Notes under the pieces: model-generated
The model's database searches: none
The model's input: only the letters and a program-made list of their open reading frames with translations
Told to the model about the DNA's origin: nothing
Position numbers and translations under genes: made by a program
DNA from: Minisyncoccota bacterium
GTDB taxonomy: Bacteria; Patescibacteriota; Minisyncoccia; Phycocordibacterales; UBA1006
Length of the DNA: 64,000 nt
Assembly (NCBI GenBank): GCA_028697455.1
Contig: JAQVEZ010000002.1
Coordinates: 25,486 to 89,485, forward strand
Direction: 5' to 3'
Part shown: one piece after another, positions 3,217 through 63,076 of the stretch
Layout of the letters: each line of letters opens with the position of its first letter
Numbering within the stretch: position 1 is the first letter of the stretch

Positions 3217-3237
3217 ATTAAAAAAGCCAGAAACTAT

Positions 3238-3726: not shown

Positions 3727-3744
3727 AATAGCACAAAGAAAAAT

Positions 3745-4401
3745 TTAAGAAAGAATGTTCCCTTTCCTTTTTCTCTTTTTGAGTTTCTTCTTTCCAAACC
3801 AATAAATCAAAAACCCAAGAATCGCAAAGAGCACGATTTTTTCTAAAATATCAAAAAAATTTGATATCCCAAGAAGCTGACTTCCCATAAACCACCCAAC
3901 GAGCCCCATGAGAACCGCACCCAAAAAAACTCCGAGGAGTGTGAGCACCGCATAACGAAGATATGACATCTTGCTCATACCAGCATACAAAGCAAAAGCA
4001 ACACTTGGAACAAAAGGCACGGCCCTCAAAAAAACAAAAAGAAAATCTCGATAAGGGTTTCCCTCTCCATAACCAAAAAGATATTCAACGTCACGCTTTC
4101 GCACTCCAAGATATTTTCCGTAACGCTCAACAAAAGTCATCCCCAAGAGCCGAGCAAGATAAACATAAGGAAGAGACCCAACAAGCACCCCAAGAGCAGA
4201 GGCAACGCCCACAACCCACAAAAAAGAAAGAAAGGATCCAGGTTCAAAAGGAACCCCCGCAAACAAAATCATTCCAGCAAAACCCTGAACGAGAGTCGAA
4301 GGAATCAAAGCAATAAGCTCCTCAACAATTCCCGCAGAAAAAACTCCCAAAAAACCATAGTTCCCAATCCAAAGTTGAAGTGACTGAATAATAGCGTCCA
4401 T
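3745..4401 (-). CDS. DedA / SNARE-associated (TVP38/TMEM64) family membrane protein
   Basis: 218 aa polytopic membrane protein; VVGVASALGVLVGSLPYVYLARLLG...FVERYGKYLGV is a typical DedA core; basic C-terminal tail. Confidence 0.75.
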   Translation of the reverse strand: MDAIIQSLQLWIGNYGFLGVFSAGIVEELIALIPSTLVQGFAGMILFAGVPFEPGSFLSFLWVVGVASALGVLVGSLPYVYLARLLGMTFVERYGKYLGVRKRDVEYLFGYGEGNPYRDFLFVFLRAVPFVPSVAFALYAGMSKMSYLRYAVLTLLGVFLGAVLMGLVGWFMGSQLLGISNFFDILEKIVLFAILGFLIYWFGKKKLKKRKRKGNILS

Positions 4402-9799: not shown

Positions 9800-10756
9800 A
9801 TGAGTTATCACATTGATAAAAACTATCATGGACTTCTCAAAGAAATCCTTGATCACGGCCTCTTTAGAAGCCCTGAAGAAGAACGAACAGGAACAGGAAC
9901 AAAAGGAATTTTTGGCTACCAATACCGGTGCCCTAATGTTTCTGAACAATTCCCCCTCATAACAACCAAAAAAGTTTATTTTAAATCGGTTGTTACTGAG
10001 CTCTTATGGAAAATTTCTGGCTCAACAAACATCAGACCCTTGGTGCTTGCTGAAAATCGCATTTGGAACGAATGGCCTTTTCAAAATTATTTGAAAAAAA
10101 CAAATCAGGAAAAAGACTTTCCAAAATATTCAGAGCAGTGGGAATTTGCTATGAAAATGTTTGTTGAAGATATTAAGTCATCAGAAGATTTTGCAAAAAA
10201 GTGGGGTGGTCTTGGCCCAACTTATGGACATCATTTCAGACATTTTTCTGGATACAACCCTGAAACGGACACCCTTGTAGAAGGCTTTGACCAACTTATT
10301 GACGCAATCAACACGATCAGAGATAACCCGGGTTCACGTCGTATCATCATCAGTCTTTGGAATGCAACGGAGAACCCTTACACGCTCTTGCCTCCATGTC
10401 CTTGTTTCTACCACTTTGCTGTACTTGGTGGAAAATTACATCTCCAGATGTATCAGCGAAGCTGTGATACTTTTCTTGGGGTACCCTTTAACACGGCACA
10501 AGATGCTTTATTTCTGTTGCTTGTTGCACAGGTATGTGGTCTCCCTGCAGGAGATTTTATTCACACCTTTGGAGATGCTCATATTTATTCAAATCATTTT
10601 GAACAAGTAAGATTGCAGCTATCCCGGGACTCCAGACCTATGCCTCGAGTAGAGTTGAATCCCAGTATTAAAAATATTGACGGATTCACCCCTGAGGATA
10701 TCAAACTTGTTGGGTATGATCCTCATCCTACTATTAAGGCACGGGTTGCGGTGTAA
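9800..10756 (+). CDS. thyA: Thymidylate synthase (ThyA type), with an internal insertion
   Basis: RRIIISLWN, LPPCPCFYHF (catalytic Cys in the LPPCH-like motif), MYQRSCDTFLGVPFN, DAHIYSNH; 318 aa. Confidence 0.9.
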   Translation: MSYHIDKNYHGLLKEILDHGLFRSPEEERTGTGTKGIFGYQYRCPNVSEQFPLITTKKVYFKSVVTELLWKISGSTNIRPLVLAENRIWNEWPFQNYLKKTNQEKDFPKYSEQWEFAMKMFVEDIKSSEDFAKKWGGLGPTYGHHFRHFSGYNPETDTLVEGFDQLIDAINTIRDNPGSRRIIISLWNATENPYTLLPPCPCFYHFAVLGGKLHLQMYQRSCDTFLGVPFNTAQDALFLLLVAQVCGLPAGDFIHTFGDAHIYSNHFEQVRLQLSRDSRPMPRVELNPSIKNIDGFTPEDIKLVGYDPHPTIKARVAV

Positions 10757-36112: not shown

Positions 36113-37033
36113 ATGGAAATACAGCGTGCTCTTAAACAATTCTTGGAATATCTTGAAATAGAAAAAGGACGAAGTCTCAAAACCGTTCGTAATTACAAAC
36201 ATTACATAAATCGTTTTATCATTTTTGGAAATCTCAAACACACCAAAGACATTAATGCTGAAACCGTTCGTTCCTTCCGACTCTATCTTAATCGACAACC
36301 AGGACAAAAATCTCAAGGACAAAGCTCAGGGACAATGAAAAAAAGGACACAGAACTACCACCTTATTGCTCTTCGTGTTTTCTTAAAATATCTTATGAAA
36401 CAAGGAATTTCGGTATATAGTCCTGATCATATTGAGCTTGCAAAAACAGGAGATCGCCACGTTGACCACCTTGAAAGTCATGAACTTTCTCGTCTTTTTG
36501 ATGCCGCAGAAAAACACCCACGAAATTACGCATTACTTCATATGCTCTTTTCTACAGGACTTCGTCTTTCTGAGCTTTGTTCTCTCAACCGAGATATTGA
36601 CCTTAATCAAGATGAACTGAGTATTAGAGGAAAAGGAGAAAAAATTCGTATTGTCTTTTTGAGTAAAGAAACAAAAGATGCTGTGCGCAAATATCTTAGC
36701 TCAAGGACTGATATCGATGAAGCGCTCTTTATTCAAGAAGGGCCTTCTCGTGTGAAACGAGAAGAAAATAATGAATCACTCAGATTAAGCCCTCGCTCTG
36801 TGGAACGTATAGTGAAACAAATGGCTCTTGAAGCAGGGATTTCAAAAAGAGTTACTCCTCATACCATTCGGCACTCCTTTGCCACTGATTTACTGAGAAA
36901 CGGCGCTGACATTAGAAGTGTCCAAATGATGCTAGGGCACAGCAATATTGCAACAACACAAATCTATACGCATATCACCGACAAGCAACTACGTGATATT
37001 CACAAAAAGTTTCACAACAAAAACAACGAGTGA
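36113..37033 (+). CDS. Tyrosine site-specific recombinase, XerC/XerD-like
   Basis: C-terminal catalytic block HTIRHSFATDLLRNGADIRSVQMMLGHSNIATTQIYTHI (R..H..R..Y); N-terminal SAM-like core-binding domain. Confidence 0.8.
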   Translation: MEIQRALKQFLEYLEIEKGRSLKTVRNYKHYINRFIIFGNLKHTKDINAETVRSFRLYLNRQPGQKSQGQSSGTMKKRTQNYHLIALRVFLKYLMKQGISVYSPDHIELAKTGDRHVDHLESHELSRLFDAAEKHPRNYALLHMLFSTGLRLSELCSLNRDIDLNQDELSIRGKGEKIRIVFLSKETKDAVRKYLSSRTDIDEALFIQEGPSRVKREENNESLRLSPRSVERIVKQMALEAGISKRVTPHTIRHSFATDLLRNGADIRSVQMMLGHSNIATTQIYTHITDKQLRDIHKKFHNKNNE

Positions 37034-43995: not shown

Positions 43996-44086
43996 ATATA
44001 ATTGTTTTGATTTAACCCCAAGGTACTATCTCGTAGGAAATTGTAAATAGGAGAATAAAAAAAACACCCCCTTAAACAGGAATGCT

Positions 44087-44115
44087 AATACTTTATGTCC
44101 ACCCGCCAGGACTCG
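44087..44115. repeat. Direct-repeat copy of the 3' end of tRNA-Arg plus 10 nt of its downstream flank. The partner copy at 44286..44314 overlaps the tRNA.
   Basis: aatActttatgtccacccgccaggactcg (44087-44115) vs aatTctttatgtccacccgccaggactcg (44286-44314): 28 of 29 nt identical, 199 bp apart. Confidence 0.6.
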
Positions 44116-44296
44116 GTCACCGTTCTGGATTTTTCTTCGAGCAAAGCTCTTGAAAAACCTCATCGCCTCGACCCCGCCGCTTGCGACAAGCACTCGCTAT
44201 CGCTCGTCTTGTATACCGCTTCGCTTTTTTCGAGCCTTGCAGGAAGACTAAAGAAAAAACCACCCATACTGACATATGAGTAGTTAATTCTTTATG

Positions 44297-44368
44297 TCCA
44301 CCCGCCAGGACTCGAACCTGGAATGACGGTTCCGAAGACCGTAGTGATATCCATTTCACCACAGGTGG
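44297..44368 (-). tRNA. tRNA-Arg (anticodon TCG)
   Basis: Minus-strand cloverleaf CCACCTG-TG-GTGAAATGGATATCAC-T-ACGGT CTTCGGA ACCGT-CATT-CCAGG TTCGAGT CCTGG-CGGGTGG-A; anticodon loop CTTCGGA; 72 nt, no encoded CCA. Confidence 0.8.
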
Positions 44369-44626
44369 AATGAATCTAGTATAAATCTATTTTGAGAAAC
44401 CGCAAGAAAAAACTCTAAAAAAGACATGTCCCAAAAAGACACTCATTTAAAGAGAAAGGGCTGTCTCTCCCGTTTTTTACAATTTATAAGCCTATTCAAG
44501 CCTGTGGATAACTTTGGGTATAGAGGGGATAAAAGACAATATTTGTTTTTTGAAAAAAGAAGTCTTTTTGTCCAATAAGCTTGCCTTTTAAGGTTTTCAG
44601 GTGGATTAATGATATAATCGTTTCAT

Positions 44627-45025
44627 ATGAAACAATTCTCCTCAGAAAAGCAGAAAATAGGTCTTTACGGGGAAAATATAGTGTCCTTATGGCTTACAAA
44701 GAACGGCTTTTCTTTAATAGAAAGGAATTATGGGACACGCTATGGAGAAATAGATATTATTGCTCAAAAAGGAGAGGTTCTTTATTTTATCGAGGTCAAA
44801 AGTATTCTTTCTGAAAATACTGATTTTGTTTCCCGTGAAACACAATATAACCCAGCTGAAAACGTTTCACGTGAAAAGATGAAAAGAATGAAGCGAACCA
44901 TTGAGATATTCTTATCAGAAAGAAAAATTCGTGGAGCATTTCAGATCGATGTCTTTGTTGTCTTTATCGACAAAAGAAGTATAAAACACAAGATAAATCG
45001 TATAGAAAACATCATCCTCCCATAG
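44627..45025 (+). CDS. yraN: YraN (UPF0102) family predicted endonuclease
   Basis: GLYGENIVSLWLTKNGFSLIERNYGTRYGEIDIIAQKGEVLYFIEVK, then RMKRTIEIFL, are the YraN signature blocks. Two parS-like palindromes lie inside the 3' part of this CDS. Confidence 0.7.
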   Translation: MKQFSSEKQKIGLYGENIVSLWLTKNGFSLIERNYGTRYGEIDIIAQKGEVLYFIEVKSILSENTDFVSRETQYNPAENVSREKMKRMKRTIEIFLSERKIRGAFQIDVFVVFIDKRSIKHKINRIENIILP

Positions 45026-45534
45026 TTTCATGTGAAACTATGAAGGTAGTGTTTCCCGTGAAACATTAAACGAGGGTATTCTTTAAAAAACCCGTCCTAT
45101 TCGATACCCTTTATTTCTCAAAGCAATACTCGATCTTAAGACCAACAGAGAAAGGCTAAAAAGTTTCATGTGAAACATCCAAAAATACCGAAAGGAATTT
45201 TAAATAAGTTGAAATTTTGTTTCACGTGGAACATATCAAGCGGATGTTTCTCGTGAAACATTCTAAAAAGAACAAAACATTCAAACAAAATGTTTCCCGT
45301 GAAACACTTTAAACAAACACTGTGAAAAAGATGTATCAACAACCCCGTGTTTCATGTGAAACACACCAAGACCAAAAGAGAAGTCCTTGCGGAAAAGCAA
45401 ACCTTGTTTCACATGAAACATAGGCAAGCAATATCTAAGGGAAATAATGATGTTTTCACGTGAAACACTTCTAAGACCAAAAATTAAACAAAGCCCTCCT
45501 TCACGGAGACAGATAATAATGTTTCACATGAAAC
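44827..45534. promoter_or_regulatory. parS: Array of about 12 parS (ParB-binding, centromere-like) 16-bp palindromes
   Basis: Sites at 44827-44842 (TGTTTCCCGTGAAACA), 44863-44878 (CGTTTCACGTGAAAAG, weaker), 45024-45039 (AGTTTCATGTGAAACT), 45050-45065 (TGTTTCCCGTGAAACA), 45162-45177 (AGTTTCATGTGAAACA), 45218-45233 (TGTTTCACGTGGAACA), 45245-45260 (TGTTTCTCGTGAAACA), 45291-45306 (TGTTTCCCGTGAAACA), 45348-45363 (TGTTTCATGTGAAACA), 45405-45420 (TGTTTCACATGAAACA), 45451-45467 (TGTTTTCACGTGAAACA, with a 1-nt insertion), 45519-45534 (TGTTTCACATGAAACA). The established parS consensus is TGTTNCACGTGAAACA. Confidence 0.85.
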
Positions 45535-45552: not shown

Positions 45553-46053
45553 ATGATATACTCAATACTAATGAGAATTCTAGAAGGAAAAGAACTCCAA
45601 AACGCAGAAAACTGGATGGGGCAAGCAGTCATCTTTGGGAAAAAGGCAAGTTGTAACCGTGCTCACTATGGATCGGTTATTGTTAAAGACGGGGAACTTA
45701 TCGGAGGTGGCTTTAACAGCCCTCCTCAAGATAAAGAATCTCAACGTAAATGCTCATATTCAAAAGGCGAGTATCACAAGAAGGTCACCGATAAAACCTG
45801 CTGTATTCATGCTGTACAACGTGCAATTATGGATGCCCTAAGAAAAAACCCAGATAAATTACCTGGATCAAGGCTTTATTTTATTCGACTTGATGATGCT
45901 GATGAAATTTCTTATGCGGGGAAACCTTACTGCACAATCTGTAGTAAAATGGCTCTTGATGCTGGTATCAAGGAATTTGTTCTTTGGCACGAAGAAGGGA
46001 TTGCTGTTTATGATACCGAAGAATATAATCTCTTGTCCTATCAATACCAGTAA
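45553..46053 (+). CDS. CMP/dCMP-deaminase-fold protein, with the catalytic Glu position occupied by Val
   Basis: CCIHAVQRAI...PYCTICSKMALDAGIKEF resembles the HxE...PCxxC zinc-binding signature, but reads H-A-V instead of H-A-E. Confidence 0.5.
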   Translation: MIYSILMRILEGKELQNAENWMGQAVIFGKKASCNRAHYGSVIVKDGELIGGGFNSPPQDKESQRKCSYSKGEYHKKVTDKTCCIHAVQRAIMDALRKNPDKLPGSRLYFIRLDDADEISYAGKPYCTICSKMALDAGIKEFVLWHEEGIAVYDTEEYNLLSYQYQ

Positions 46054-46096: not shown

Positions 46097-46169
46097 TCGG
46101 GGTGTGGTGTAACGGCTAACATGCTTGTTTTGGGTACAAGTGACTCCGGGTTCGAATCCCGGCTCCCCG
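46097..46169 (+). tRNA. tRNA-Pro (anticodon TGG)
   Basis: CGGGGTG-TG-GTGTAACGGCTAACA-TGCTTG TTTTGGG TACAAGT (anticodon loop TTTGGGT)-GACT-CCGGG TTCGAAT CCCGG-CTCCCCG-A; followed by a hairpin terminator (AAACATCAGATAA...TTATTTGATGTTT). Confidence 0.85.
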
Positions 46170-46367
46170 ACAGAATTTAAACATCAGATAATTATTTTAT
46201 TTGATGTTTTTATTTTGCCAGAAAGGAGATGGGATTCGAAAAAAGTCGCCTGCGAAGCCTGATGTTTGAGGCAACGAAAACATCAGTAGGCGACGGCGGG
46301 GTTGAGCGAATGAGATTATATTAAGCCTTGAAAAAGCGAAAATATAATCCATGAGGGTGACCGAACT

Positions 46368-46386
46368 CGGCTCCCCAACAAAATTT
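46368..46386. repeat. Imperfect direct-repeat copy of the tRNA-Pro 3' end (partner copy at 46159..46177, within the tRNA and its flank)
   Basis: cggctccccAacaAaattt vs cggctccccGacaGaattt (17 of 19 identical), 209 bp apart. In both this and the tRNA-Arg case the copy is preceded by GGTGACCGA. Confidence 0.5.
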
Positions 46387-46809: not shown

Positions 46810-46883
46810 AAAAGAATATAAAATAAATACGTATCTTGAGTATAGCAAAAAAGAACACCCTTGTGTTCTTTTTTAAATATTTG

Positions 46884-46954
46884 TGCGGGTGGGGAGAATC
46901 GAACTCCCGTCCTCTGGTTGGAAGCCAGATATTCTGCCACTAAACTACACCCGC
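46884..46954 (-). tRNA. tRNA-Gly (anticodon TCC)
   Basis: Minus strand: GCGGGTG-TA-GTTTAGTGGCAGAAT-A-TCTGG CTTCCAA CCAGA-GGAC-GGGAG TTCGATT CTCCC-CACCCGC-A. Confidence 0.85.
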
Positions 46955-47454: not shown

Positions 47455-48036
47455 TTATTTTCTCTTTGAGATAATAGCATCAACAATTCCATACTTCTTT
47501 GCTTGTTGTGCATCGAGCCAAAAGTCCCTATCCATATCCTTTTCAATCTGTTCTTTCTTTTGTCCTGTTGCCGAAACAAGCATATCAGTAAGGATTTTTT
47601 TTGTTTTTAAAATCTGTTCAGCGGTGATAGCAATGTCTGATGCCTGTCCCTCAACACCTGTCATCGGCTGGTGAATCATTATTCGTGAATTAGGAAGAAC
47701 ATAGCGCTTTCCCTTTGCTCCTTGAGAGAGAATCATCGCCCCCATAGAAGCCGCCATTCCAATACAAACAACGGAAACGTCTGGTTTGATATAATTCATG
47801 GTATCAATCATCGCCATTCCAGCATCAACTGATCCCCCTGGTGAATTTACATAAATAGTAATGTCTTTGTTAGCATCTTCTTGTTCAAGATGAAGAAGCT
47901 GTGCCACAACACTATTTGCAAGATCGTTACTAATAACACCACTCACAAAAATAATTCTTTCTTTTAATAAACGCGAATAAATATCGTACGCACGCTCTCC
48001 TGCGTGTGTTTTTTCAATAACTGTTGGTATTAACAT
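47455..48036 (-). CDS. clpP: ATP-dependent Clp protease proteolytic subunit
   Basis: [17 protein letters not shown], catalytic region [10 protein letters not shown] (Ser), IMIHQP (His); 193 aa. Confidence 0.9.
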
Positions 48037-48092
48037 ATCTGAAGTATAAACAAAAAAAAAGCCTTTTCAAGAAAAGCTTTCTCTTTAAAAAA

Positions 48093-49145
48093 TTATTTAC
48101 AATTATCAAGAAATTCAAAAACTTTTTGGTGAGTCAGTATCTCAGTAACATAATGATGTACATTTGCTTCCTGAATCCCTGGTTGGTTTTTATATTGGTT
48201 CATGAGGTACTCAACTTCTTTCTCAACAACCTCTTGTTCGGGGGTAATTTTTTCTTTCTTTGCAATCTCTCCTAAAGCAAGTTCTGTTTTAACTCGCTCT
48301 TCGGCTTGCTCTTTCCATTCTTTTCGGTAATCTTCTCGAGTTTTTTTGATAGATTCAAGATACTCATCAAAAGCCATTCCTGTCATCGTTATATTGTGCT
48401 CAAATTCATGCATCATTTTATCAAGCTCGTGATTAAGAAAAAGTTGCGGAATTTCAAATTCAGAATCTTTTACAAGTCTTTGCATAATTTCCATTCGCCT
48501 TTTTTCGATATTTTTTGCTTCTTTTTCTTTCTCGATATTTTCTTTAATTTTTGCCTTAAGATCTGAAAGATCTTTAAATTGCCCTAAGGTTTTAACCCAT
48601 TCTTCATCAAGAGGAGGGAGGTCTTCATCTTTGATATCACTCCATGATACAGGTTCTGAGCCTTGGTCTTGGATTTTTTGTTGAGCGCTCATTTTGCGGA
48701 GATTATAAATAGCCTCATCAACTTCACGATCTTCCACCTCAAAAGAATACTCTTTGTTGTTTTCTTCTTTTGCTATTTTTTTGTAATCTCCAAGCTTAAT
48801 CTCTGGAGCGAGTGCCGTTGTAATTTTAACCTCAGCATCGGTTCCTTCTGCTATTTTGGTAATGAGAATTTCTGGGTAGCCAATTGCTTCAACGCCAGAC
48901 TCTTTGATAATGTCTTGGAAACTATGACTAATCGCATGTTGGACCATTTCTTCGAAAATAGCCGCTTTGTTGAGATGTTTTTCTGCGATATCCTTTGGAA
49001 CATGTCCTTTACGGAAACCGGGAAGATCAATATTCTTTAAAAAATCGCTCTCAATGTGCTCTCGATGTGTTTCAATTTCTTTAAGAGACAAAACAACCTC
49101 AATTTCAGCACGAGCATTTTCTTTTTTTACTGTTTTTATTTTCAT
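48093..49145 (-). CDS. tig: Trigger factor (short form)
   Basis: N-terminal ribosome-binding signature GFRKGHVP; located directly upstream of clpP as in the conserved tig-clpP arrangement; 350 aa. Confidence 0.75.
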   Translation of the reverse strand: MKIKTVKKENARAEIEVVLSLKEIETHREHIESDFLKNIDLPGFRKGHVPKDIAEKHLNKAAIFEEMVQHAISHSFQDIIKESGVEAIGYPEILITKIAEGTDAEVKITTALAPEIKLGDYKKIAKEENNKEYSFEVEDREVDEAIYNLRKMSAQQKIQDQGSEPVSWSDIKDEDLPPLDEEWVKTLGQFKDLSDLKAKIKENIEKEKEAKNIEKRRMEIMQRLVKDSEFEIPQLFLNHELDKMMHEFEHNITMTGMAFDEYLESIKKTREDYRKEWKEQAEERVKTELALGEIAKKEKITPEQEVVEKEVEYLMNQYKNQPGIQEANVHHYVTEILTHQKVFEFLDNCK

Positions 49146-49229
49146 GCCTTTTACTATAACAAAAAGCTAAATTTTGACTACTTTTTCAAACAAAAAACAG
49201 CTTTTTGCTGCTTTTGATTGATGAATAAG

Positions 49230-49781
49230 CTAGTTTCCAAACTTTTCATTATAGAGAACAATGGATTTTTCGATTGCTTTTATCGCCTCATCTTTTCCTT
49301 TGATTGAATTGATAGTAACAATATCTCCTTTTCCCTTAAGTTCTTTATAGGTTTCAAAAAAATGAGTCCATTCCTTGAGGACATGGGGATTAAGATGCTC
49401 AAGCTCAGTTACTCCTTCCCATCGCTTGTCGTTTACGGGAACGGCGATAATTTTATAATCTGATTCGCCACTATCATTCATTTCCATAACGGCAACTGGT
49501 CGAACTTTCACCAAAACCCCAACTTCAAGGGGAAAGGTTGTTGGGACAATAACATCAAGAGCATCTCCGTCCTCCCACAAAGTTTGTGGGACAAAACCAT
49601 AATCAAAAGGATAAGGACTTGCACTATAATTAACTCGATCAAGGGCAATTAACCCTGTTTCCTTATCAATCTCGTATTTATTATAAGAACCCTTAGGAAT
49701 CTCAATAATACAGTTAAACTCATGAGGAATATTTTCTCCTCGTGATATGTCATGCCATAAATTCATAGTAAGTATTTTCAA
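49230..49781 (-). CDS. ppa: Inorganic pyrophosphatase (family I)
   Basis: IIEIPKGSYNKYEID, DGDALDVIV, YKIIAV are family-I PPase motifs; an alternative start is at ATG 49766. Confidence 0.85.
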   Translation of the reverse strand: MKILTMNLWHDISRGENIPHEFNCIIEIPKGSYNKYEIDKETGLIALDRVNYSASPYPFDYGFVPQTLWEDGDALDVIVPTTFPLEVGVLVKVRPVAVMEMNDSGESDYKIIAVPVNDKRWEGVTELEHLNPHVLKEWTHFFETYKELKGKGDIVTINSIKGKDEAIKAIEKSIVLYNEKFGN

Positions 49782-49884
49782 AAAAGGTAAATAATACTTC
49801 TTAGTATAGAAAAATAGAAACTTTTTTCAAGAGATGCTCTTTATTAATGACATATTTTAAGGGATCATGTTATACTTTAAGCGT

Positions 49885-52869
49885 ATGAAAAAATTTTTTA
49901 TCTTATTTATTTTTGTTTTTTCTTTGAGTTTATTCACCCCACAGAAAACCGAAGCCCTTTTTGATGTTGGGAGCTTAATACTCGTTGCAAAAGAATACGG
50001 AATGGATACCCTCACGACTATTATCAACTCACGTATTATGGATAAACTCGTGAGTGATACGGTTAACTGGGCAAATGGTGGTTTTGACGGAGAGCCTGGC
50101 TTCATCAACAACTGGGAAGATTATCTCAAGGGGACTGAACAAGATGTCTTTATTGGAGCTTTTAGTGTTGCCGAAAAAGCCACAAGCTCTTATATACAAA
50201 ACTTCTGTAACCTTGATTGTTCCGGAAACAGCCCTGAAAATATCCAAGCTGATTATGAAGAATGTCTTGCTGGTGGTGCCCCCGTTGAAACCTGTGATGC
50301 GTATGCTAACGCAGCAAGTGCTGATTACCAGCAATGCATGGCAAATCTCGAGCAAGGAGCGGGTACTTGTCAAATGCTTGATATCGGTGCGCAGGCGCAA
50401 AGTAATTATAACGCATGGAATTCGGGAGAACTTGATTCCTATCGGCTTGCTGCAGAGAGTATTGCCCTCATCGGAGGGCAGCGATTCAACTCCGACCCAC
50501 TCAAAGCGCTTATTGAAGGACAGGGTGAAACCCTTACTAAACTCCTTGGTTCAAAATCTGAAGTAGAGAATTTTAAAAATGACTTCTCTGTTGGGGGAAT
50601 ACGGGGGTGGATTGCTCTAGCTGACCCACACAACTTTCCACTCGGACAATCAACACTTATTGAATCTGCCCTAAGTCAAAAAACAGGAGAGAAGGTTCAA
50701 AATGTTGTAGAAGATTTGCAAACACCAAATAAATTCCTCGACAGAAAATGGTGTCTCGAACGAGATGATGACAACAACTGTACAAAAGAATTTACGGGGA
50801 CTCCAGGAGCTCTTATTGAATCAAAAATAAAATCAACAGCTGATTCTGACAGCGATCGTCTTAATGTTGCCCGAGAACTTTCCGACGTTCTGGCTCGAGC
50901 GCTTGGAAAACTCACCGATGGCTTACTCCAAGCAGGCTTCAATAAGCTTACTCAATCGGGAAGTTCTGGTGCGAGTGCACAACCCTTCCAACCAGCTCAA
51001 TTTTTTACAACAGGATATCAAAATGAATTCGATATTCTTGGTTTAGGAGATCTTTCTCCTTCTGGAAGCCTTCTTGGGGGAGGAACCGGTGGGGGGAATA
51101 CTCAAACACCGATCTTTGATCCCGAGACGGGAACCTTTACACCTCTTCGTGGAGGTGATGGATCTCTTCCTTATATTGGAGGACCCGAAGATGCAGTAAA
51201 TACAAGCTGGAACGAAGGTCCTGAGATTATTATTGATCTTCAGAGTGTTCTCGAAAACTCAATTAATCTTATCCAAGAAGAGCTCACGCTCCTCACAGAG
51301 ACTGAAAAAATCCTCAGAGATGGAAAAGATAATGTGATGAAACTTGATCGTTGTATCCCTGGTCCAAAATTTGGGTGGGAAGACAGGCTTCGAGATAATC
51401 TAAATCTTACTGGAGATAGTAACGACGAAGAATCTGCTTATGACCGACTTGGGCTCCAAGAAACTCGTCGTATGGCAAATGACAATATGGTGAATATCCC
51501 TGGGGCAAGTCAAATGAGAGGAACCGTAAATGCTCTCCTCTCTCAAAATGGGGAAAATCAATTTGAAGAAGTTTCGAATGAACGAAACCGAAAACAAACC
51601 TATCTTGCAATTCTTAAAAACATGAAATCTTCAATCCAACAAGATTTTAATAACTATAAAGGAGCTATTGATTCACATCTTGTTATCTTTGAAGAGGACT
51701 GGAATAAACTCTCTGATACCGAGAAAATCGCGCTCTTCTCTATCCCCGAACGAGATGAGAATGGTGATATCATTTATGTTCCCGTTGAGGTAGGGAGCTC
51801 GGGAACTATTGTCGTTAATGAAAACCAAGAACGTCCTCTCTATATTATGGAGAAATACTATCTCTTTAAACCAGGAGAAACTCCAGCATCTGTTTTTGCA
51901 AATAATCCTGATGCCGTCAAAAAAGCCGTCTTGAGTTATTCATGGGATCTCTGGCAAAGAAAGAAGGGGGAAGAGCCAGCAAGTGGAACAACCCCAAATG
52001 GAGTAACCCAAAAATCAAACCTTCGCTATCAATATTATGCCATGTCAAAATATCTCACCACAGAGTCTGATATCCTTGATGCAGAAATGAAAAAAGATGA
52101 AGTGACTCAGAGCAATAAAACCATTATTGATCTTCTTCATGACTGTATGCAGCTAAAATTATATGCACTTGGATATTCTGATGGGAATGGTGAAAATACA
52201 GAAATGTGGAAACGCCTAGACCAGACCTTGTCCCAGGAACCTTCACGATCTCTTGGAATGCTTATTGGAGGAATGAGTGTTGAGAGGGCTGATCATGGAA
52301 GTACTGCTTACCAACTCAATGTGGACAATGCTCGTACCGATCAGCAAATAAAAAATTATCTGCTCCAAGAAAAAGCCAAACAAGAAAACAACCAACCAAG
52401 TAATTTTAAGACTTCAATAATTACTAATGGTGTTGAAGAAAGTATTCTTGGTTTTGAAGAAACAACTATTAGCTGGGAGGAAGTAGCTCATTACGGACCA
52501 CCAGGGCACAACCCCTACGGATCTCCTGATGGTGACGGAAATATAACCTTGAGTCCGAGCCAAACAAGAAAAAAATACTTTGATGATTTTTATGAAAAAG
52601 ATGAAGATCTCTGGCAACCCTATTATAAATATTCAAATGGTATTGCAGAGATAGACCCAGAAAGAGCTGTTGCAAGACTCTATCAGTTCGATTATATGAC
52701 AATGGGATGGCCACGAGGGGGAAATGGGAAAGGAACACTCTATTGTAGAGTAGTGACCTCATTCGATGCACGGGGATGGCATGGAGCTCAAAATCTCCCA
52801 AAATGCTACAAAGATTGGTACAGTACGTCAAATATTACCTATGACCTTGCGTTGATGAATATTCGATAA
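49885..52869 (+). CDS. Large secreted Cys-containing protein, hypothetical; first gene of the surface/T4SS-like gene block
   Basis: Signal peptide MKKFFILFIFVFSLSLFTPQKTEA; start at ATG 49885 with a TATACT box 8 nt upstream; about 995 aa; followed by terminator AAGCCttcgGGCTTTTTT. Confidence 0.55.
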   Translation: MKKFFILFIFVFSLSLFTPQKTEALFDVGSLILVAKEYGMDTLTTIINSRIMDKLVSDTVNWANGGFDGEPGFINNWEDYLKGTEQDVFIGAFSVAEKATSSYIQNFCNLDCSGNSPENIQADYEECLAGGAPVETCDAYANAASADYQQCMANLEQGAGTCQMLDIGAQAQSNYNAWNSGELDSYRLAAESIALIGGQRFNSDPLKALIEGQGETLTKLLGSKSEVENFKNDFSVGGIRGWIALADPHNFPLGQSTLIESALSQKTGEKVQNVVEDLQTPNKFLDRKWCLERDDDNNCTKEFTGTPGALIESKIKSTADSDSDRLNVARELSDVLARALGKLTDGLLQAGFNKLTQSGSSGASAQPFQPAQFFTTGYQNEFDILGLGDLSPSGSLLGGGTGGGNTQTPIFDPETGTFTPLRGGDGSLPYIGGPEDAVNTSWNEGPEIIIDLQSVLENSINLIQEELTLLTETEKILRDGKDNVMKLDRCIPGPKFGWEDRLRDNLNLTGDSNDEESAYDRLGLQETRRMANDNMVNIPGASQMRGTVNALLSQNGENQFEEVSNERNRKQTYLAILKNMKSSIQQDFNNYKGAIDSHLVIFEEDWNKLSDTEKIALFSIPERDENGDIIYVPVEVGSSGTIVVNENQERPLYIMEKYYLFKPGETPASVFANNPDAVKKAVLSYSWDLWQRKKGEEPASGTTPNGVTQKSNLRYQYYAMSKYLTTESDILDAEMKKDEVTQSNKTIIDLLHDCMQLKLYALGYSDGNGENTEMWKRLDQTLSQEPSRSLGMLIGGMSVERADHGSTAYQLNVDNARTDQQIKNYLLQEKAKQENNQPSNFKTSIITNGVEESILGFEETTISWEEVAHYGPPGHNPYGSPDGDGNITLSPSQTRKKYFDDFYEKDEDLWQPYYKYSNGIAEIDPERAVARLYQFDYMTMGWPRGGNGKGTLYCRVVTSFDARGWHGAQNLPKCYKDWYSTSNITYDLALMNIR

Positions 52870-58540: not shown

Positions 58541-60134
58541 AATATCGTATACTAGAAATATTACTACTATGAAAAAAGCCTATTTAACACTTTCTTTGGC
58601 AGTTATTCTTTTGGGAGGATTTTTAATGAACCCTTCTTGGGGAGAAGCACAAAATCAATGCACTGTTTCAAGTGCTACTTTTACCCAACCTGAAGATAAT
58701 TCTTTTGATAAAAAGAAGTCTACTTTAAATATCAAAACTAACGGTTGTGAATATACAAACCTTTCTGTGGTATTAAAATATTTTGCATCAGATGATTATA
58801 TATGGACCCATCAAATAAAAAACCTTCCAGGGATTTTAAAGGTTGCAAGTGATGGGGATCTCACTCTTGAAATAACTCTGGGAGAAGACCCCTGTTGGTC
58901 TGCAAACAAGGACCCTTATGGATTTCCTTGCGTTACTTTTATTGAGGTATATCAAGGAGGGAATCTCAAATTTAGTGGAAACGAAACCTACGGAAGTGAA
59001 TTTATTACCAAAGAAAAAGTAAAACTTGGTAAAAACGATCCAAATGTTCTTAAGGATTATCGTAATAAAGGTGTCCTTATTGGAGAATGTTCAAGTACTC
59101 TCTTTTGTAAAGAAGGAAGCAGCAATGTTTGGGAGTTAAGTAAGTTACTCAAAGGAACTTCACAGCAAACACAAAGCTGTATCATCAATCCCAATGATAT
59201 CCAATATGGAGAGCTTCCTTTTGAAAAAGACAGCAACGGAAACTCTTTCCCCACTATCACAAACGCCAATCTTACTCTCAATATCAATACTACAAACTGT
59301 AAGGGATTACCTATCACTCTAAGTATTTATGGTACTGAGGGGAAGGTTGATATCAAGGTCCCAGAAAAAGGCGCCGTAACTGAAATTACCAAAACTGCTG
59401 TAGGAGACGAGCTCAAATTTTCTTTCAAAACCCATGACGAAGAATGTTCTATACAAAAAAATCCTCATTGTCAGTTTGGGACAACAATCACCCAAAACGG
59501 AACTCCCATTGTAAGTACTCAAAACCTTTTAGAAACTATTGTGCCTGGAGTAGCAATTGATTGGAATTACTATCGAAACAATGGAGTCATTTTTGCTTAC
59601 TGTTCCTCAGGTCTTGGTGGTGTCTATTACTGTGAGCGTCTTGGGGCAAATGATTGGACACTTCTCAAGGTTTCAGGAAGTGCAGGGGAAGATACGCCCG
59701 AAGTATTTGAAACGATTACCCCAAAATTCGACCCCGAAAGCCCTTGTTTTGTCCAAGAGCTCAATGGGGGAAATGGGGGATATGATGAAGATTGTTACGA
59801 ACTCCTTGCTCCTGTTCCAGGATTAAAAGGAGCTACTGATCCTCTAGGAAATAATCGCTGGAGTATTAATCTTAAGAATTTTCAAATAGGAGACTATGTT
59901 AATTCACTCTTTTCTATTGCCTTAGGAATTCTAACGCTTCTTGCGGTGATTATGATTGTGATTGCTGGGGTACAGTATATGACCATTGAAAGTTTCCAGG
60001 GTAAATCTGATGCCAAAAGTAGAATTACTGGTGCTCTGACAGGGCTTCTTCTTGCCTTGAGTATTTATATTATTTTGGGAACCATTAACCCCGATCTTCT
60101 TCAGGTAAACTTTGGAAGTAACATTGAGGAGGTG
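58541..60134. repeat. 1594-bp perfect direct repeat (partner copy 60811..62404) covering the promoter, 5' UTR and first 1566 nt of the two hydrolase genes
   Basis: Both copies begin with aatatcgtatactagaaatattactactATGaaaaaagcc and are identical by eye up to ...acattgaggaggtg. They then diverge (aagttggagggg vs gcattagaggga). Confidence 0.9.
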
Positions 60135-60788
60135 AAGTTGGAGGGGATGCAACTATCACCAGAGCAATTGGCTGCGTATGGAAACGATTATAATACCGCA
60201 ATGCAACAAGGAACAGAGATTCCTCCTGATAATCAAATGTTCCAAGATGAAGGGTTTATTGCATATCTCTATCACCAACAAGGAGAAGGCGGTGCTCCTT
60301 CTATTATCTATTCCGCACAACAAGGATGGAGTAAAATTGAAAAAACTCCTTGGGCATCAAACAAATTAAAAGCTGCTGACGTCAACAAAAATATGAATAA
60401 CAACTGGCCAAGCGGCGTCAACCGAGGAAACGGGTCTCCTTCAGACTTTCTCAGGGTTTGGTGGGTGGTATGGAACCAAAGAAAGACAGAAATAAGTCTC
60501 ATACCAAAAAATGTTGCAAACATTGTTACCCAAGTTGCAAATGAAGAAAAGATTGAAGTGAACCGATTCAAAACAGTGTGTATGATAGAATCGAGTTGTA
60601 ATAATCCAAGCATCAAAAACGACCAAGGGTACAAAGGCCTTTTCCAGTTTAGTGATGACACCTTTGCTTCTCAGAAAAAACCTGGCTGTGATAGTATTTT
60701 TGATGCCTATTGTAATAGTTATGCGGGAGCACGTTATATGAAATATAATCTTTCTCGCTGGAATAAGCATAAAGCTAAGATCTTTTGA
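58569..60788 (+). CDS. Secreted membrane-anchored cell-wall hydrolase, variant 1: shared 520-aa N-terminal module plus C-terminal SLT lytic transglycosylase domain
   Basis: Signal peptide; Cys-containing N-terminal domain; hydrophobic helical hairpin LFSIALGILTLLAVIMIVIAGVQYM...ITGALTGLLLALSIYIILG; C-terminal CMIESSCNNPSIKNDQGYKGLFQFSDDTFAS carries the E-S...GLxQ lytic transglycosylase signature. Confidence 0.6.
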   Translation: MKKAYLTLSLAVILLGGFLMNPSWGEAQNQCTVSSATFTQPEDNSFDKKKSTLNIKTNGCEYTNLSVVLKYFASDDYIWTHQIKNLPGILKVASDGDLTLEITLGEDPCWSANKDPYGFPCVTFIEVYQGGNLKFSGNETYGSEFITKEKVKLGKNDPNVLKDYRNKGVLIGECSSTLFCKEGSSNVWELSKLLKGTSQQTQSCIINPNDIQYGELPFEKDSNGNSFPTITNANLTLNINTTNCKGLPITLSIYGTEGKVDIKVPEKGAVTEITKTAVGDELKFSFKTHDEECSIQKNPHCQFGTTITQNGTPIVSTQNLLETIVPGVAIDWNYYRNNGVIFAYCSSGLGGVYYCERLGANDWTLLKVSGSAGEDTPEVFETITPKFDPESPCFVQELNGGNGGYDEDCYELLAPVPGLKGATDPLGNNRWSINLKNFQIGDYVNSLFSIALGILTLLAVIMIVIAGVQYMTIESFQGKSDAKSRITGALTGLLLALSIYIILGTINPDLLQVNFGSNIEEVKLEGMQLSPEQLAAYGNDYNTAMQQGTEIPPDNQMFQDEGFIAYLYHQQGEGGAPSIIYSAQQGWSKIEKTPWASNKLKAADVNKNMNNNWPSGVNRGNGSPSDFLRVWWVVWNQRKTEISLIPKNVANIVTQVANEEKIEVNRFKTVCMIESSCNNPSIKNDQGYKGLFQFSDDTFASQKKPGCDSIFDAYCNSYAGARYMKYNLSRWNKHKAKIF

Positions 60789-60838
60789 TCTTGGTTTTTT
60801 TATTTTAAAGAATATCGTATACTAGAAATATTACTACT

Positions 60839-63076
60839 ATGAAAAAAGCCTATTTAACACTTTCTTTGGCAGTTATTCTTTTGGGAGGATTTTTAATGAA
60901 CCCTTCTTGGGGAGAAGCACAAAATCAATGCACTGTTTCAAGTGCTACTTTTACCCAACCTGAAGATAATTCTTTTGATAAAAAGAAGTCTACTTTAAAT
61001 ATCAAAACTAACGGTTGTGAATATACAAACCTTTCTGTGGTATTAAAATATTTTGCATCAGATGATTATATATGGACCCATCAAATAAAAAACCTTCCAG
61101 GGATTTTAAAGGTTGCAAGTGATGGGGATCTCACTCTTGAAATAACTCTGGGAGAAGACCCCTGTTGGTCTGCAAACAAGGACCCTTATGGATTTCCTTG
61201 CGTTACTTTTATTGAGGTATATCAAGGAGGGAATCTCAAATTTAGTGGAAACGAAACCTACGGAAGTGAATTTATTACCAAAGAAAAAGTAAAACTTGGT
61301 AAAAACGATCCAAATGTTCTTAAGGATTATCGTAATAAAGGTGTCCTTATTGGAGAATGTTCAAGTACTCTCTTTTGTAAAGAAGGAAGCAGCAATGTTT
61401 GGGAGTTAAGTAAGTTACTCAAAGGAACTTCACAGCAAACACAAAGCTGTATCATCAATCCCAATGATATCCAATATGGAGAGCTTCCTTTTGAAAAAGA
61501 CAGCAACGGAAACTCTTTCCCCACTATCACAAACGCCAATCTTACTCTCAATATCAATACTACAAACTGTAAGGGATTACCTATCACTCTAAGTATTTAT
61601 GGTACTGAGGGGAAGGTTGATATCAAGGTCCCAGAAAAAGGCGCCGTAACTGAAATTACCAAAACTGCTGTAGGAGACGAGCTCAAATTTTCTTTCAAAA
61701 CCCATGACGAAGAATGTTCTATACAAAAAAATCCTCATTGTCAGTTTGGGACAACAATCACCCAAAACGGAACTCCCATTGTAAGTACTCAAAACCTTTT
61801 AGAAACTATTGTGCCTGGAGTAGCAATTGATTGGAATTACTATCGAAACAATGGAGTCATTTTTGCTTACTGTTCCTCAGGTCTTGGTGGTGTCTATTAC
61901 TGTGAGCGTCTTGGGGCAAATGATTGGACACTTCTCAAGGTTTCAGGAAGTGCAGGGGAAGATACGCCCGAAGTATTTGAAACGATTACCCCAAAATTCG
62001 ACCCCGAAAGCCCTTGTTTTGTCCAAGAGCTCAATGGGGGAAATGGGGGATATGATGAAGATTGTTACGAACTCCTTGCTCCTGTTCCAGGATTAAAAGG
62101 AGCTACTGATCCTCTAGGAAATAATCGCTGGAGTATTAATCTTAAGAATTTTCAAATAGGAGACTATGTTAATTCACTCTTTTCTATTGCCTTAGGAATT
62201 CTAACGCTTCTTGCGGTGATTATGATTGTGATTGCTGGGGTACAGTATATGACCATTGAAAGTTTCCAGGGTAAATCTGATGCCAAAAGTAGAATTACTG
62301 GTGCTCTGACAGGGCTTCTTCTTGCCTTGAGTATTTATATTATTTTGGGAACCATTAACCCCGATCTTCTTCAGGTAAACTTTGGAAGTAACATTGAGGA
62401 GGTGGCATTAGAGGGATATGACCCCCCAACATCTCCTTATTTTTCAAGCGGCTCAACGGGGTCAAATTACAACATAAATGCAGGGTCAGTACCAACAGGA
62501 AGTGCGAGTCAGTATTTAGCAAATTCAGGGGTATACTGTCCAAAACAAGGAGGGAGGACGGTCGTAAAACAGGTTGCTGAAAGTTTCCAGGAAAAAGTTA
62601 GCTATCGCTATGGAGGACGGTTCAATGATTTAGGGCAATCTTTTCCGAGTCACTGGAAGGGTTCTGGAAAAGGATATAATAAAAACACATCATGTCAGGT
62701 AAGCTCTGGGACTCTTTGCTTAGATTGTTCGGCTTTTGTCGCCACTGTTCTCTATTGTTCTGGAATAACAGAAAAACCAGAGATTGGAACAACTACTCAA
62801 ATTTTTCAGAATTCTGAAAAAATAAACCAACTTGATAAAAAAAATGGGGTTGTTAATGGAGTACCTCTTCAGCCAGGAGACCTTATAGGAGGAAAAGGTC
62901 ATGTTGGTATTTATATAGGAAATGGAATGGTAGCAGAATCAACAAGCGATAAGGGGGGTCGGAACCTAAACAAAGCAATCAAAATTCGAGGAATGGATGG
63001 AAATTGGTTTGGTATAGGGAAAAAAGGTGGTTATGTTGTACGACTAAATAAGCTATCTGGGGTTAAACTTAATTAA
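60839..63076 (+). CDS. Secreted membrane-anchored cell-wall hydrolase, variant 2: identical N-terminal module plus C-terminal NlpC/P60-type peptidase domain
   Basis: First 522 residues identical to 58569..60788; C-terminal SSGTLCLDCSAFVATVLYCSG...LQPGDLIGGKGHVGIYIGNGMVAES has the catalytic Cys and His arrangement of NlpC/P60. Confidence 0.6.
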   Translation: MKKAYLTLSLAVILLGGFLMNPSWGEAQNQCTVSSATFTQPEDNSFDKKKSTLNIKTNGCEYTNLSVVLKYFASDDYIWTHQIKNLPGILKVASDGDLTLEITLGEDPCWSANKDPYGFPCVTFIEVYQGGNLKFSGNETYGSEFITKEKVKLGKNDPNVLKDYRNKGVLIGECSSTLFCKEGSSNVWELSKLLKGTSQQTQSCIINPNDIQYGELPFEKDSNGNSFPTITNANLTLNINTTNCKGLPITLSIYGTEGKVDIKVPEKGAVTEITKTAVGDELKFSFKTHDEECSIQKNPHCQFGTTITQNGTPIVSTQNLLETIVPGVAIDWNYYRNNGVIFAYCSSGLGGVYYCERLGANDWTLLKVSGSAGEDTPEVFETITPKFDPESPCFVQELNGGNGGYDEDCYELLAPVPGLKGATDPLGNNRWSINLKNFQIGDYVNSLFSIALGILTLLAVIMIVIAGVQYMTIESFQGKSDAKSRITGALTGLLLALSIYIILGTINPDLLQVNFGSNIEEVALEGYDPPTSPYFSSGSTGSNYNINAGSVPTGSASQYLANSGVYCPKQGGRTVVKQVAESFQEKVSYRYGGRFNDLGQSFPSHWKGSGKGYNKNTSCQVSSGTLCLDCSAFVATVLYCSGITEKPEIGTTTQIFQNSEKINQLDKKNGVVNGVPLQPGDLIGGKGHVGIYIGNGMVAESTSDKGGRNLNKAIKIRGMDGNWFGIGKKGGYVVRLNKLSGVKLN

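Follow-up and report, generated by a model that had tools for sequence, protein, structure and literature searches.

Organization of the tRNA-Pro locus

The window examined here is the whole 64-kb stretch of contig JAQVEZ010000002.1. It contained a non-coding cassette of about 200 bp 3′ of a tRNA-Pro gene and a sister cassette behind a tRNA-Arg gene. Trigger-factor homologues placed the window organism in Patescibacteria (source names: Patescibacteria group, Ca. Pacebacteria, and Minisyncoccia), and the genetic code of the genome was standard. Three tRNA genes were called in the 64 kb by ARAGORN and Rfam. The tRNA-Pro region was composed of the following features; comparison loci are denoted by L and a number.

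46098–46171, + strand: tRNA-Pro(TGG), intact, without an encoded CCA (ARAGORN; Rfam, 59.3 bits)
From 46153, + strand: 3′ part of tRNA-Pro from T-loop C56 onward, repeat copy 1 (repeat comparison)
46172–46216, + strand: linker with trailer, intrinsic-terminator-like hairpin AAACATCAGATAA / TTATTTGATGTTT, and U-tract (inverted repeat, fold, comparison with the terminators of L138, L129, and L221)
46217–46238, + strand: 5′ strand GCCAGAAAGGAGATGGGATTCG, the complement of the 3′ strands of the tRNA-Pro T-stem and acceptor stem (duplex energies, fold)
46239–46294, + strand: joiner AAAAAAG and variable hairpin P1 (folds)
46295–46361, + strand: conserved core, ending in GGTGAC (covariance model R1, 72.7 bits, E = 3e-17)
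46362–46386, + strand: repeat copy 2, the displaced and decayed tRNA-Pro 3′ part from C56 (CGAA-CTCGGCTCCCCAACAAAATTT; 21/25 against L122)

The tRNA-Pro gene was thus followed by a terminator-like hairpin, a well-folding segment, and a copy of its own 3′ part that has decayed. In the repeat search, CGGCTCCCCGACAGAATTT (46160–46178) matched CGGCTCCCCAACAAAATTT (46368–46386) at 17 of 19 positions with a spacing of 208. When one 1-nt deletion was allowed, the homology extended to the T-loop residue C56 (46153 and 46362), with a spacing of 209. The arms of the terminator hairpin were located at 46171–46191 and 46197–46217 by an inverted-repeat search. The 5′ strand was able to pair either with the 3′ part of the tRNA itself or with the downstream copy. 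Hairpin P1 consisted of an outer stem, GTCGCC/GGCGAC, an internal GCGAAGC motif, and an inner stem, CTGATGTTT/AAACATCAG. The core began with the joiner GGCGG, followed by helix PJ (46300–46303 with 46359–46362), a 3 × 3 internal loop, helix P3 (46307–46312 with 46350–46355), which contained tandem G·A pairs, helix P2a (46315–46322 with 46341–46348), an internal loop of the UGA/GAAA type, and P2b.

An earlier note, made from the letters of the window, had described a terminator, a GC-rich segment, and two hairpins behind tRNA-Pro. The terminator was recovered as an inverted repeat, and both hairpins, GTCGCC/GGCGAC and CTGATGTTT/AAACATCAG, appeared in the minimum-free-energy fold of the segment, which had an energy of −52.2 kcal/mol (z = −3.6). 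The G+C content of the Pro core (0.44) was above that of the window (about 0.38), so that the segment was GC-rich only in relative terms; the Arg core reached 0.54.

Comparison with the cassette behind tRNA-Arg

The sister cassette was located on the opposite strand and was composed of the following features.

44296–44368, − strand: tRNA-Arg(TCG), holding repeat copy 1 of the sister cassette (ARAGORN, Rfam)
44086–44295, − strand: sister cassette (repeats, folds; covariance model, 71.5 bits)
44285–44258, − strand: terminator of the Arg cassette
44248–44231, − strand: 5′ strand
44230–44180, − strand: joiner and P1
44179–44116, − strand: core
44115–44086, − strand: repeat copy 2
44086–44063, − strand: second terminator, beyond the Arg cassette

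The repeat at tRNA-Arg (44285–44314 and 44086–44115) was identical at 29 of 30 positions with a spacing of 199. The inserts were compared by local alignment with the tRNA-derived parts excluded. The score was 42, against 20.5 ± 3.2 in 1000 dinucleotide shuffles (z = 6.6), and none of the shuffles reached it. Three blocks were common to both inserts, TCGAAAAAAG, CGGCGGGGTyGAGnnnATGAG, and AATCCAnnnnGGTGACCGA, and each was restricted to these two places in the 64 kb, with an expectation of 0.1–0.16. The proposal that tRNA-Pro carries a second mini-element, homologous to that at tRNA-Arg, with the same layout and shared internal motifs, was therefore confirmed by the repeats (17/19 and 29/30), by the motif blocks, and by the significant similarity of the inserts.

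The third tRNA gene of the window was located farther downstream.

46883–46954, − strand: tRNA-Gly(TCC) (ARAGORN, Rfam)

Distribution of the cassette family

A pattern composed of GGGGTNGAGNNNATGAG, a gap of 25–55 nt, and GGTGACCRA was searched in metagenome contigs. It was found at 45 loci, about 40 of which were genuine, with the full layout, and lay in low-GC contigs. At most pattern loci a same-strand tRNA gene was located 120–200 nt upstream of the cassette, and the tRNAs seen were Ser(GGA, TGA), Gly(TCC), Arg(TCG, CCT), Leu(TAA, CAA), Met, His, Phe, and Asp. With the core covariance model R1, more divergent copies were recovered at tRNA-Asp, Tyr, Glu, Trp, and Cys. The cassettes adjoined at least 17 different tRNA species, and several tRNA genes of one contig often carried one. 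All copies were located behind a tRNA gene or a decayed remnant of a tRNA tail, and only two occurred in the 64 kb. A downstream copy of the last 17 nt was present for 26 of the 56 distinct tRNAs in this biased sample. Both window elements were found at the same two tRNA genes in a sister genome, L122 (about 93–94% nucleotide identity), in which the Pro element ended with a perfect 23-nt copy of the tRNA tail, and locus L133 held perfect repeats of at least 63 nt. The two elements therefore belong to a widespread family of about 200-bp non-coding cassettes 3′ of tRNA genes in Patescibacteria, with the same blocks and geometry at some 40 further loci and many tRNAs, rather than being debris. 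A restriction to two sites with no conservation elsewhere was clearly not what the search returned.

Behind tRNA-Lys, Arg(CCT), Thr, and Tyr, the slot was occupied by other, unrelated cores. Other core types in this slot were located at L140 (3330–3640), L133 (1957–2110), L157 (8257–8410), and L135 (downstream of tRNA-Tyr at 965–1049), and they kept the order of tRNA, terminator, complementary strand, core, and tRNA tail copy. The other cores included a 66-nt 'type A' core that was present as two identical tandem units, and GCGAAGC or AAGCGAAG recurred in the loops of these core types.

At L124, L130, L134, and L160 the cassettes had no detectable tRNA gene and shared a sequence of about 100 nt located about 100 nt upstream (GACCCACRUACCUUAUUUU ... 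CAGAAANCCUUAUGGGGUCUU ...), which ended in a decayed segment resembling a tRNA tail. The motif TTGGCATTTGTTGGCATTTT was located farther upstream in L130 and L136. No known RNA of Rfam was found in the upstream regions of the tRNA-less loci.

Structure and covariation of the core

The proposed structure was scored on two alignments, a MAFFT alignment of 30 distinct cores and a model-based alignment of 35 distinct cores. Standard pairs were formed in 80.7% of the cells of the MAFFT alignment (64.4% when shuffled) and in 83.0% of those of the model-based alignment (62.8%). The covariation scores were 0.391 (0.133 when shuffled) and 0.465 (0.132), respectively, and 0 of 500 shuffles reached the score in either alignment. 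Slid controls gave 0.08–0.13 in the MAFFT alignment and 0.07–0.13 in the model-based alignment. The outermost pair of P3 (columns 14–74 of alignment A4) was GC in 11, CG in 10, AU in 7, and GU in 2 cores of the MAFFT alignment and was never unpaired. The middle two pairs of P3 switched between Watson–Crick pairs and tandem G·A/A·G. The near-invariant PJ helix, GGUC/GACC, was proven by a double compensatory change, as it read GCCC/GGGC in two copies. When the Pro cores of the window and L122 were compared (120 of 126 positions identical), three of the 6 differences were located in helices, all of them pair-preserving transitions, and three in loops or joiners. The cassette thus has a conserved single-strand structure, and the stems that had been called covariation-like covary far beyond both the shuffled and the slid controls.

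The unit from C56 to GGUGAC folded into three domains, with z values of −6 to −9.5, and it is predicted to form a three-way junction. When folded as a circle, it formed a continuous rod with one branch. Protein coding was rejected for the core, since the cores of 66–84 nt fell into all three length classes modulo 3 and the stems changed by compensatory pairs.

The G·A mismatches favoured the tRNA-sense strand, with 82 in the core and, in the terminal helix, 17 against 7 C·U. The folding strand would be that of tRNA sense, most probably as RNA. Triloops were the commonest predicted loop class (22 of 64), eight of them being C(GNA)G, and no UNCG tetraloop was present. A GCGAAG-like motif was present in 17 of the 30 P1 hairpins. 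The sequence d(GCGAAGC) and GNA loops form exceptionally stable DNA mini-hairpins, and a folded single-stranded DNA form is therefore weighed below as well.

Mimicry of the neighbouring tRNA

In the tRNA sense, the unit began with the tRNA from C56 to its end and a few trailer bases, followed by a terminator composed of an A-tract, a hairpin, and a U-tract. The middle part contained the 5′ strand, which was the complement of the 3′ strands of T-stem and acceptor stem, then UCG, an A-rich joiner (AAAAG), P1, and the joiner CGGCG. P1 varied in length across the family, was absent in some copies, and often contained GCGAAGC. The core consisted of PJ (GGUC with GACC), the 3 × 3 internal loop, P3 (NNNAUG with CAUNNN), P2a, the UGA/GAAA loop, P2b, and GGUGAC; its four helices form one long, bent hairpin that contains two loops with tandem G·A. 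Directly after GGUGAC, the tRNA tail started again from C56, and this was the displaced original with its original terminator.

The triplet after GGUGAC always mirrored the T-loop of the neighbouring tRNA, CGA occurring with TTCGA and CAA with TTCAA, which places the start of the repeat exactly at position 56. The repeat began at C56 in every type-B unit. The 5′ strand paired with its own 3′ copy at a mean of −21.8 kcal/mol, compared with −15.4 ± 3.9 kcal/mol for the tails of other tRNA types, and for many 5′ strands the duplex with the own copy ranked first to third of 32. The terminal duplex of the Pro element had −27.9 kcal/mol in L122 (rank 1 of 32) and only −13.4 kcal/mol in the window, because its partner copy there has decayed. 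The terminal helix thus copies the neighbouring tRNA, C56 is the fixed boundary of the repeat, and the terminator is part of the cassette itself. The mimicry of a tRNA 3′ end, which the earlier note had considered, was confirmed by the complementary 5′ strand and its preference for its own 3′ copy.

Variants of the terminal helix were found at L137 and L156, in which an extra hairpin separated the acceptor-like part of the 5′ strand from the T-stem-like part. At L166 (about 10300–10500), a degenerate tRNA-Glu-like 5′ portion with acceptor, D, and anticodon arms and T-stem was followed by a decayed core and a tRNA tail. This copy, in effect a tRNA with the core inside its T-loop, adjoined an intact tRNA-Glu gene that carried its own cassette. 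In view of these variants, the best description of the terminal helix is that of an upper half of the neighbouring tRNA in which the core replaces the T-loop.

Gain, loss, and selection

The NCBI Patescibacteria assembly L221, whose trigger factor is 56% identical to that of the window, kept the gene order of trigger factor, ClpP, HU, tRNA-Gly ... tRNA-Pro ... tRNA-Arg. Its tRNA-Pro and tRNA-Arg genes were followed by a plain terminator only, and no core was found there by the covariance model. The tRNA-Gly(TCC) site beside the HU gene was empty in the window and filled in L145. In close relatives, tRNA-Leu(CAA) was followed by one hybrid unit (L137 and L158), two units (L135), or three units (L140), and in the last array a 'type B' unit was accompanied by a pair of identical 'type A' units. 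These arrays differ by copy-number change via the tRNA-derived repeats. The empty orthologous sites and the varying unit numbers indicate that sites have been gained or lost between relatives and that the cassette behaves as an insertion.

The distal terminator of L138 was equal to the terminator directly behind tRNA-Gly in L129, and an older tRNA-Gly remnant was located farther downstream in L138, ahead of the terminator that L221 has as its native one. This comparison indicates that the terminator beside the tRNA travels with the cassette and that the native terminator ends up in the distal position. The pattern is one of serial accretion with the newest unit beside the tRNA and resembles that of classical integration hot spots at tRNA genes. 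The subtypes of P1 and core were independent of tRNA identity: the window Arg copy resembled the Gly copy of L145 and L154, and the Arg copy of L132 resembled the His copy of L152 and the Ser copy of L143.

When the window was compared with L122, spacers were about 90% identical and third codon positions about 85%. The core and linker of the Arg cassette were identical at 180 of 180 positions, and divergence resumed in both flanks, where the spacers were 91–93% identical. The identity of 180/180, set against spacers at about 90% and third positions at about 85%, indicates that the Arg copy, and thus at least one cassette copy, is under selection. The Pro 3′ copy, with 21 of 25 positions identical, has decayed, since L122 keeps a perfect 23-nt copy, and the window Pro element is beginning to lose its terminal helix (−13.4 compared with −27.9 kcal/mol). 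Decaying copies were common and also included L160, L124, and a weak copy in L166.

Cargo was located between tRNA and cassette at two loci, three ordinary genes at L129 and a diversity-generating retroelement at L139, and neither contained an integrase. At L129 (1029–1100 and 3040–3330), the tRNA-Gly gene preceded a replacement tail and a terminator, behind which lay part of an old tail (GATTCTCTCCGCCC) that lacked a core; this arrangement may be a scar. A 2.2-kb segment of three genes at this locus was flanked by repeats, GGGAAATATGTACCAAATCGAAC among them. The retroelement of L139 (1554–4650; also in L125 and L127) was complete and located between tRNA-His and the cassette. It was composed of a target open reading frame (1734–2453), a variable repeat (about 2330–2446), a template repeat (about 2740–2852), and a reverse transcriptase (3207–4238), and all mismatches between template and variable repeat were located at template adenines. 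No homologue of this reverse transcriptase was found by tblastn in the window or at the other loci. Homologous loci elsewhere were mostly beside bAvd, and three that were searched, two of them beside bAvd, contained no cassette. The link to reverse transcriptase was therefore regarded as incidental.

Neighbouring features of the window

Between the two cassettes, 13 copies of the palindrome (T)GTTTCAYRTGAAAC(A) were located within 0.9 kb (44620–45534), giving 28 strand-hits where 3 were expected. The copies were distributed over a UPF0102 gene and the 527-bp spacer ahead of the gene for dCMP deaminase. The palindrome is one that we take to be the ParB-binding parS consensus; if so, the copies would form an unusually dense centromere-like cluster. 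The cumulative GC skew had its minimum at about 48000–50000, and the coding strand switched from minus to plus at about 49.8 kb, which, together with the candidate parS cluster, suggests a replication origin region. The closest named homologues of the dCMP deaminase (45553–46053; 64–72% identity) were mostly from DPANN archaea, and Absconditabacteria were also represented, which suggests that this gene was exchanged horizontally between episymbiont lineages. Large proteins with weak matches to type IV secretion pilin, SLT, and NlpC/P60 domains were encoded at 58569–63076. In the syntenic relatives L221–L223, TraC-like and PrgI-like genes were located beside the trigger factor/ClpP/HU block.

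Comparison with known elements and RNAs

Integrative elements at tRNA sites comprise prophages, genomic islands, integrase-less cis-mobilisable elements (CIMEs), and arrays of the tycheposon type. The cassettes share with them the direct repeats of the tRNA 3′ part, the start in the T-loop, the supply of a new tRNA tail, the stacking of insertions with the newest beside the tRNA, and the empty sites in relatives. However, the cassettes measure about 200 bp and hold no gene, no integrase was located nearby, and no autonomous parent was found. Their interior is a covarying single-strand structure instead of coding DNA, they contain an inverted as well as a direct copy of the target, and one family covers at least 17 tRNA species. 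A miniature inverted-repeat transposable element also differs, since the inverted repeat of the cassette is derived from the target and changes with the tRNA, and copies were found only behind tRNA genes or their remnants.

In tRNA-like RNAs such as transfer-messenger RNA (tmRNA), YrlA/Y RNA, mascRNA, and viral tRNA-like structures, an acceptor-like helix is likewise stacked on a T-stem-like helix and joined to a non-tRNA domain. In contrast to these, the T-loop of the cassette is replaced by the core, no analogue of the D or anticodon arm and no tag reading frame is present, the helix copies the adjacent tRNA instead of tRNA-Ala, and nothing was found by ARAGORN or Rfam. Only tRNAs reached the gathering scores of Rfam 15, and nothing meaningful was found over the inserts even at E ≤ 10, including group I and II introns, ribozymes, and HEARO/IS605 RNAs. 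The rejection of tmRNA in the earlier note was upheld: ARAGORN called no tmRNA, Rfam gave no tmRNA match at E ≤ 10, the T-loop is missing, and the acceptor copies tRNA-Pro or tRNA-Arg.

A gene-less, covariation-supported 200-bp unit with both target strands over many tRNAs matched no family found here, and to our knowledge no family combines a gene-less tRNA-site unit with a built-in copy of both target strands. Literature searches turned up no description of such elements, which is weak evidence given their incomplete coverage.

Origin of the cassettes

The favoured explanation, held at even confidence, is a non-autonomous integrative cassette that carries a tRNA-mimicking structured RNA. The cassette would enter at T-loop position 55/56 by recombination through the tRNA-identical segment, either by a Campbell-type or gap-repair route of host functions or by a recombinase acting in trans. 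Insertion would do no harm, since the tRNA is rebuilt by the cassette and a terminator is supplied with it. In the folded unit, the complementary strand and the tRNA-derived strand would form an acceptor-stem/T-stem minihelix, with the T-loop replaced by the core in a three-way junction. The payload would be a tRNA-like structured RNA kept by selection, presumably produced by terminator read-through and trimmed by tRNA-processing enzymes, and it may serve the propagation of the cassette or a tRNA-related host function. The cassettes may be mobilised in cis.

Several observations weigh against this explanation. For a new tRNA target, both the 5′ strand and the 3′ part must be re-derived, for which there is no known mechanism. 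Mobility could be mimicked by ancient co-duplication with tRNA genes, combined with gene conversion. No integrase was found in or beside any copy, no transposase or reverse transcriptase was linked to the cassettes at the loci examined, and all-against-all clustering of the neighbouring open reading frames gave local synteny only, with no recurrent family. The sole recombinase in the window was an Xer-type gene at 36113–37033, 7 kb outside the repeats. No true member and no autonomous relative was found in the viral contigs, phage records, or plasmid records searched. The scans of viral contigs gave 0 matches and then 52 chance matches, only L175 being doubtful (13 bits with the model), and blastn of the Arg cassette against phage and plasmid records gave no match. 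Among the matches listed, a scan of genome contigs with GGCGGGGTNGAGNNNATGAG gave chance matches in GC-rich genomes, and none was used. The suggestion that the elements depend on an integrase was not supported. Counts of G·U and A·C favoured neither strand (12 and 18 in the core; 14 and 13 in the terminal helix), and the triloops, including C(GNA)G and GCGAAGC, suit hairpins of single-stranded DNA as well as RNA. No sigma-70-like promoter was predicted before either window element, and a good terminator precedes each. Finally, the sample of loci is biased, as all were found via the core motif.

The main competing explanation, which is considered rather unlikely, is a resident host gene for a tRNA-mimic RNA that arose by local duplication of a tRNA tail and spread with duplicating tRNA genes. 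The match of its ends would be maintained by gene conversion with the neighbouring tRNA, the RNA would act on tRNA biology, with the cognate tRNA or its enzymes as the target of, for example, a decoy, sensor, or antisense switch, and absences would be deletions between direct repeats. The strong purifying selection on the Arg copy, the many tRNAs per contig that carry a cassette, and the absence of a mobility gene agree with a resident gene, as do the perfect repeats of at least 63 nt in L133, which suggest ongoing conversion, and the degenerate full-length tRNA-Glu copy of L166 with the core in its T-loop, which resembles a tRNA paralogue. Loss by repeat recombination would also be trivially easy. 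However, the subtypes of core and P1 are independent of tRNA identity, several unrelated core types occupy the same slot, and decaying copies are common. Serial accretion with the newest unit beside the tRNA, each with its own terminator, also speaks against a resident gene, and a terminator in front together with no promoter would be odd for a host gene.

The most interesting alternative, clearly improbable as it stands, is suggested by analogy with folded single-stranded recombination sites. The folded attP of CTX phage is a substrate of XerCD, and attC hairpins are substrates of integron integrase. The terminal stem of the cassette would mimic the 3′ duplex of the tRNA gene, a host tyrosine recombinase would join the folded single-stranded DNA to the chromosomal tRNA gene, and replication would fix the insertion. 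Like attC and CTX attP(+), which are non-coding and about 60–150 nt long, the cassette has imperfect hairpins with covarying stems and invariant short boxes, and the folded stem of CTX attP(+) likewise imitates its chromosomal target. The terminal stem reproduces the target duplex and ends exactly at the insertion point C56. The loop census (22 triloops of 64, eight C(GNA)G, no UNCG, and frequent GCGAAGC) and the lack of a G·U excess would suit DNA, the Xer-type recombinase is encoded at 36113–37033, and the nearby type IV secretion or pilus-like genes could import single strands. On the other hand, a single recombinase would need to accept many tRNA sequences, the stem varies with the target tRNA, and the target is a tRNA T-loop instead of attI or dif. 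No integron-type integrase or cassette open reading frame was present, no R-box (GTTRRRY) or dif-like box was seen by eye, and the crossover would fall between T55 and C56, not between G and TT. No circular or single-stranded form is documented, and the loop census was taken from predicted folds.

The remaining explanations fit the data poorly. Passive scars, that is, attL/attR of integrase-borne islands shrunk to about 180 bp, with the blocks as integrase or accessory-protein sites in attP, are very improbable. The tail repeats, the T-loop start, and the own terminator reproduce the geometry of tRNA-integrating islands, cargo is present at L129 (3 genes) and L139 (diversity-generating retroelement), and the unit is close in size to a minimal attP. 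However, deletions that arose independently at at least 17 different tRNAs would not all have spared the same 130-nt core, compensatory changes in four helices are unexpected for duplex DNA that binds proteins, no integrase was present at any locus, the cargo loci included, and the core was on no phage or plasmid searched. This explanation is already largely refuted by the covariation.

There is a similarly slim chance of a DNA copy of a retroelement RNA, with a non-coding RNA (ncRNA) like that of retrons or diversity-generating retroelements being used by a reverse transcriptase in trans, or of a small circular replicon, a viroid-like circle in which the unit from C56 to GGUGAC would form a rod and bear a tRNA-like 'genomic tag'. 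The architecture resembles that of the retron ncRNA (msr-msd), in which terminal inverted repeats close a junction with a short and a long hairpin over about 150–200 nt; a terminal helix is present in the cassette. One cassette has a reverse transcriptase 200 nt upstream, tandem units exist, and the strong fold of the unit (z of −6 to −9.5 against shuffles) and its circular rod with one branch would suit a circle. In contrast to retrons, the terminal repeats of the cassette are derived from tRNA, it is found only behind tRNA genes, and it has no adjacent reverse transcriptase. The nearby enzyme is part of a diversity-generating retroelement that has a template repeat and a variable repeat of its own, three homologous loci have no cassette, and no reverse transcriptase was present in the window or at the other loci. 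The source of the copies, which lack CCA and contain trailer sequence of the gene, was therefore DNA or precursor RNA and not the mature tRNA. No ribozyme family was matched.

Least probable of all is a T-loop intron with an alternative 3′ exon, the read-through RNA being spliced from T55 to the distal copy of C56: both junctions lie at position 55/56, the 5′ strand pairs with either tail copy like an internal guide, and one degenerate tRNA-Glu copy has the core inside the T-loop, but the proximal tRNA is complete and has a good terminator, so that splicing would be unnecessary, distal copies have in many cases decayed or been truncated, signatures of group I and group II introns are absent, and we know of no self-splicing intron as small as the core. 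A search by eye gave no convincing bulge-helix-bulge splice motif, hammerhead or k-turn signature, or integrase half-site around the GGTGAC–CGA junction.

Implications for Patescibacteria

A bolder form of the integrative explanation, which is itself rather unlikely, is a new class of protein-less mobile elements. A structured RNA or folded single-stranded DNA of about 200 nt would recognise tRNA genes via both strands of the acceptor and T-stem, insert at position 55/56 while rebuilding the tRNA, and be propagated only by tRNA-processing, recombination, or Xer-type enzymes of the host. If true, integron cassettes or viroid-like 'genomic-tag' replicons would have a tRNA-templated counterpart in bacteria of the candidate phyla radiation.

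If the favoured explanation holds, many tRNA genes of Patescibacteria, a very large and little understood radiation of bacteria, precede a conserved structured element that is described in no database. The cassettes would represent a new and well-supported class of RNA, or of folded DNA, with a built-in, target-specific tRNA mimic, and the small 'tRNA tail duplications' that are ignored by annotation pipelines would be explained. The family would also provide a natural scaffold for the display of RNA domains on a tRNA-like stem. The puzzle is how a gene-less 200-bp unit homes to the T-loops of many tRNAs and re-derives both target strands, and its answer could reveal a new route of recombination or RNA processing, or a new tRNA-directed regulator.

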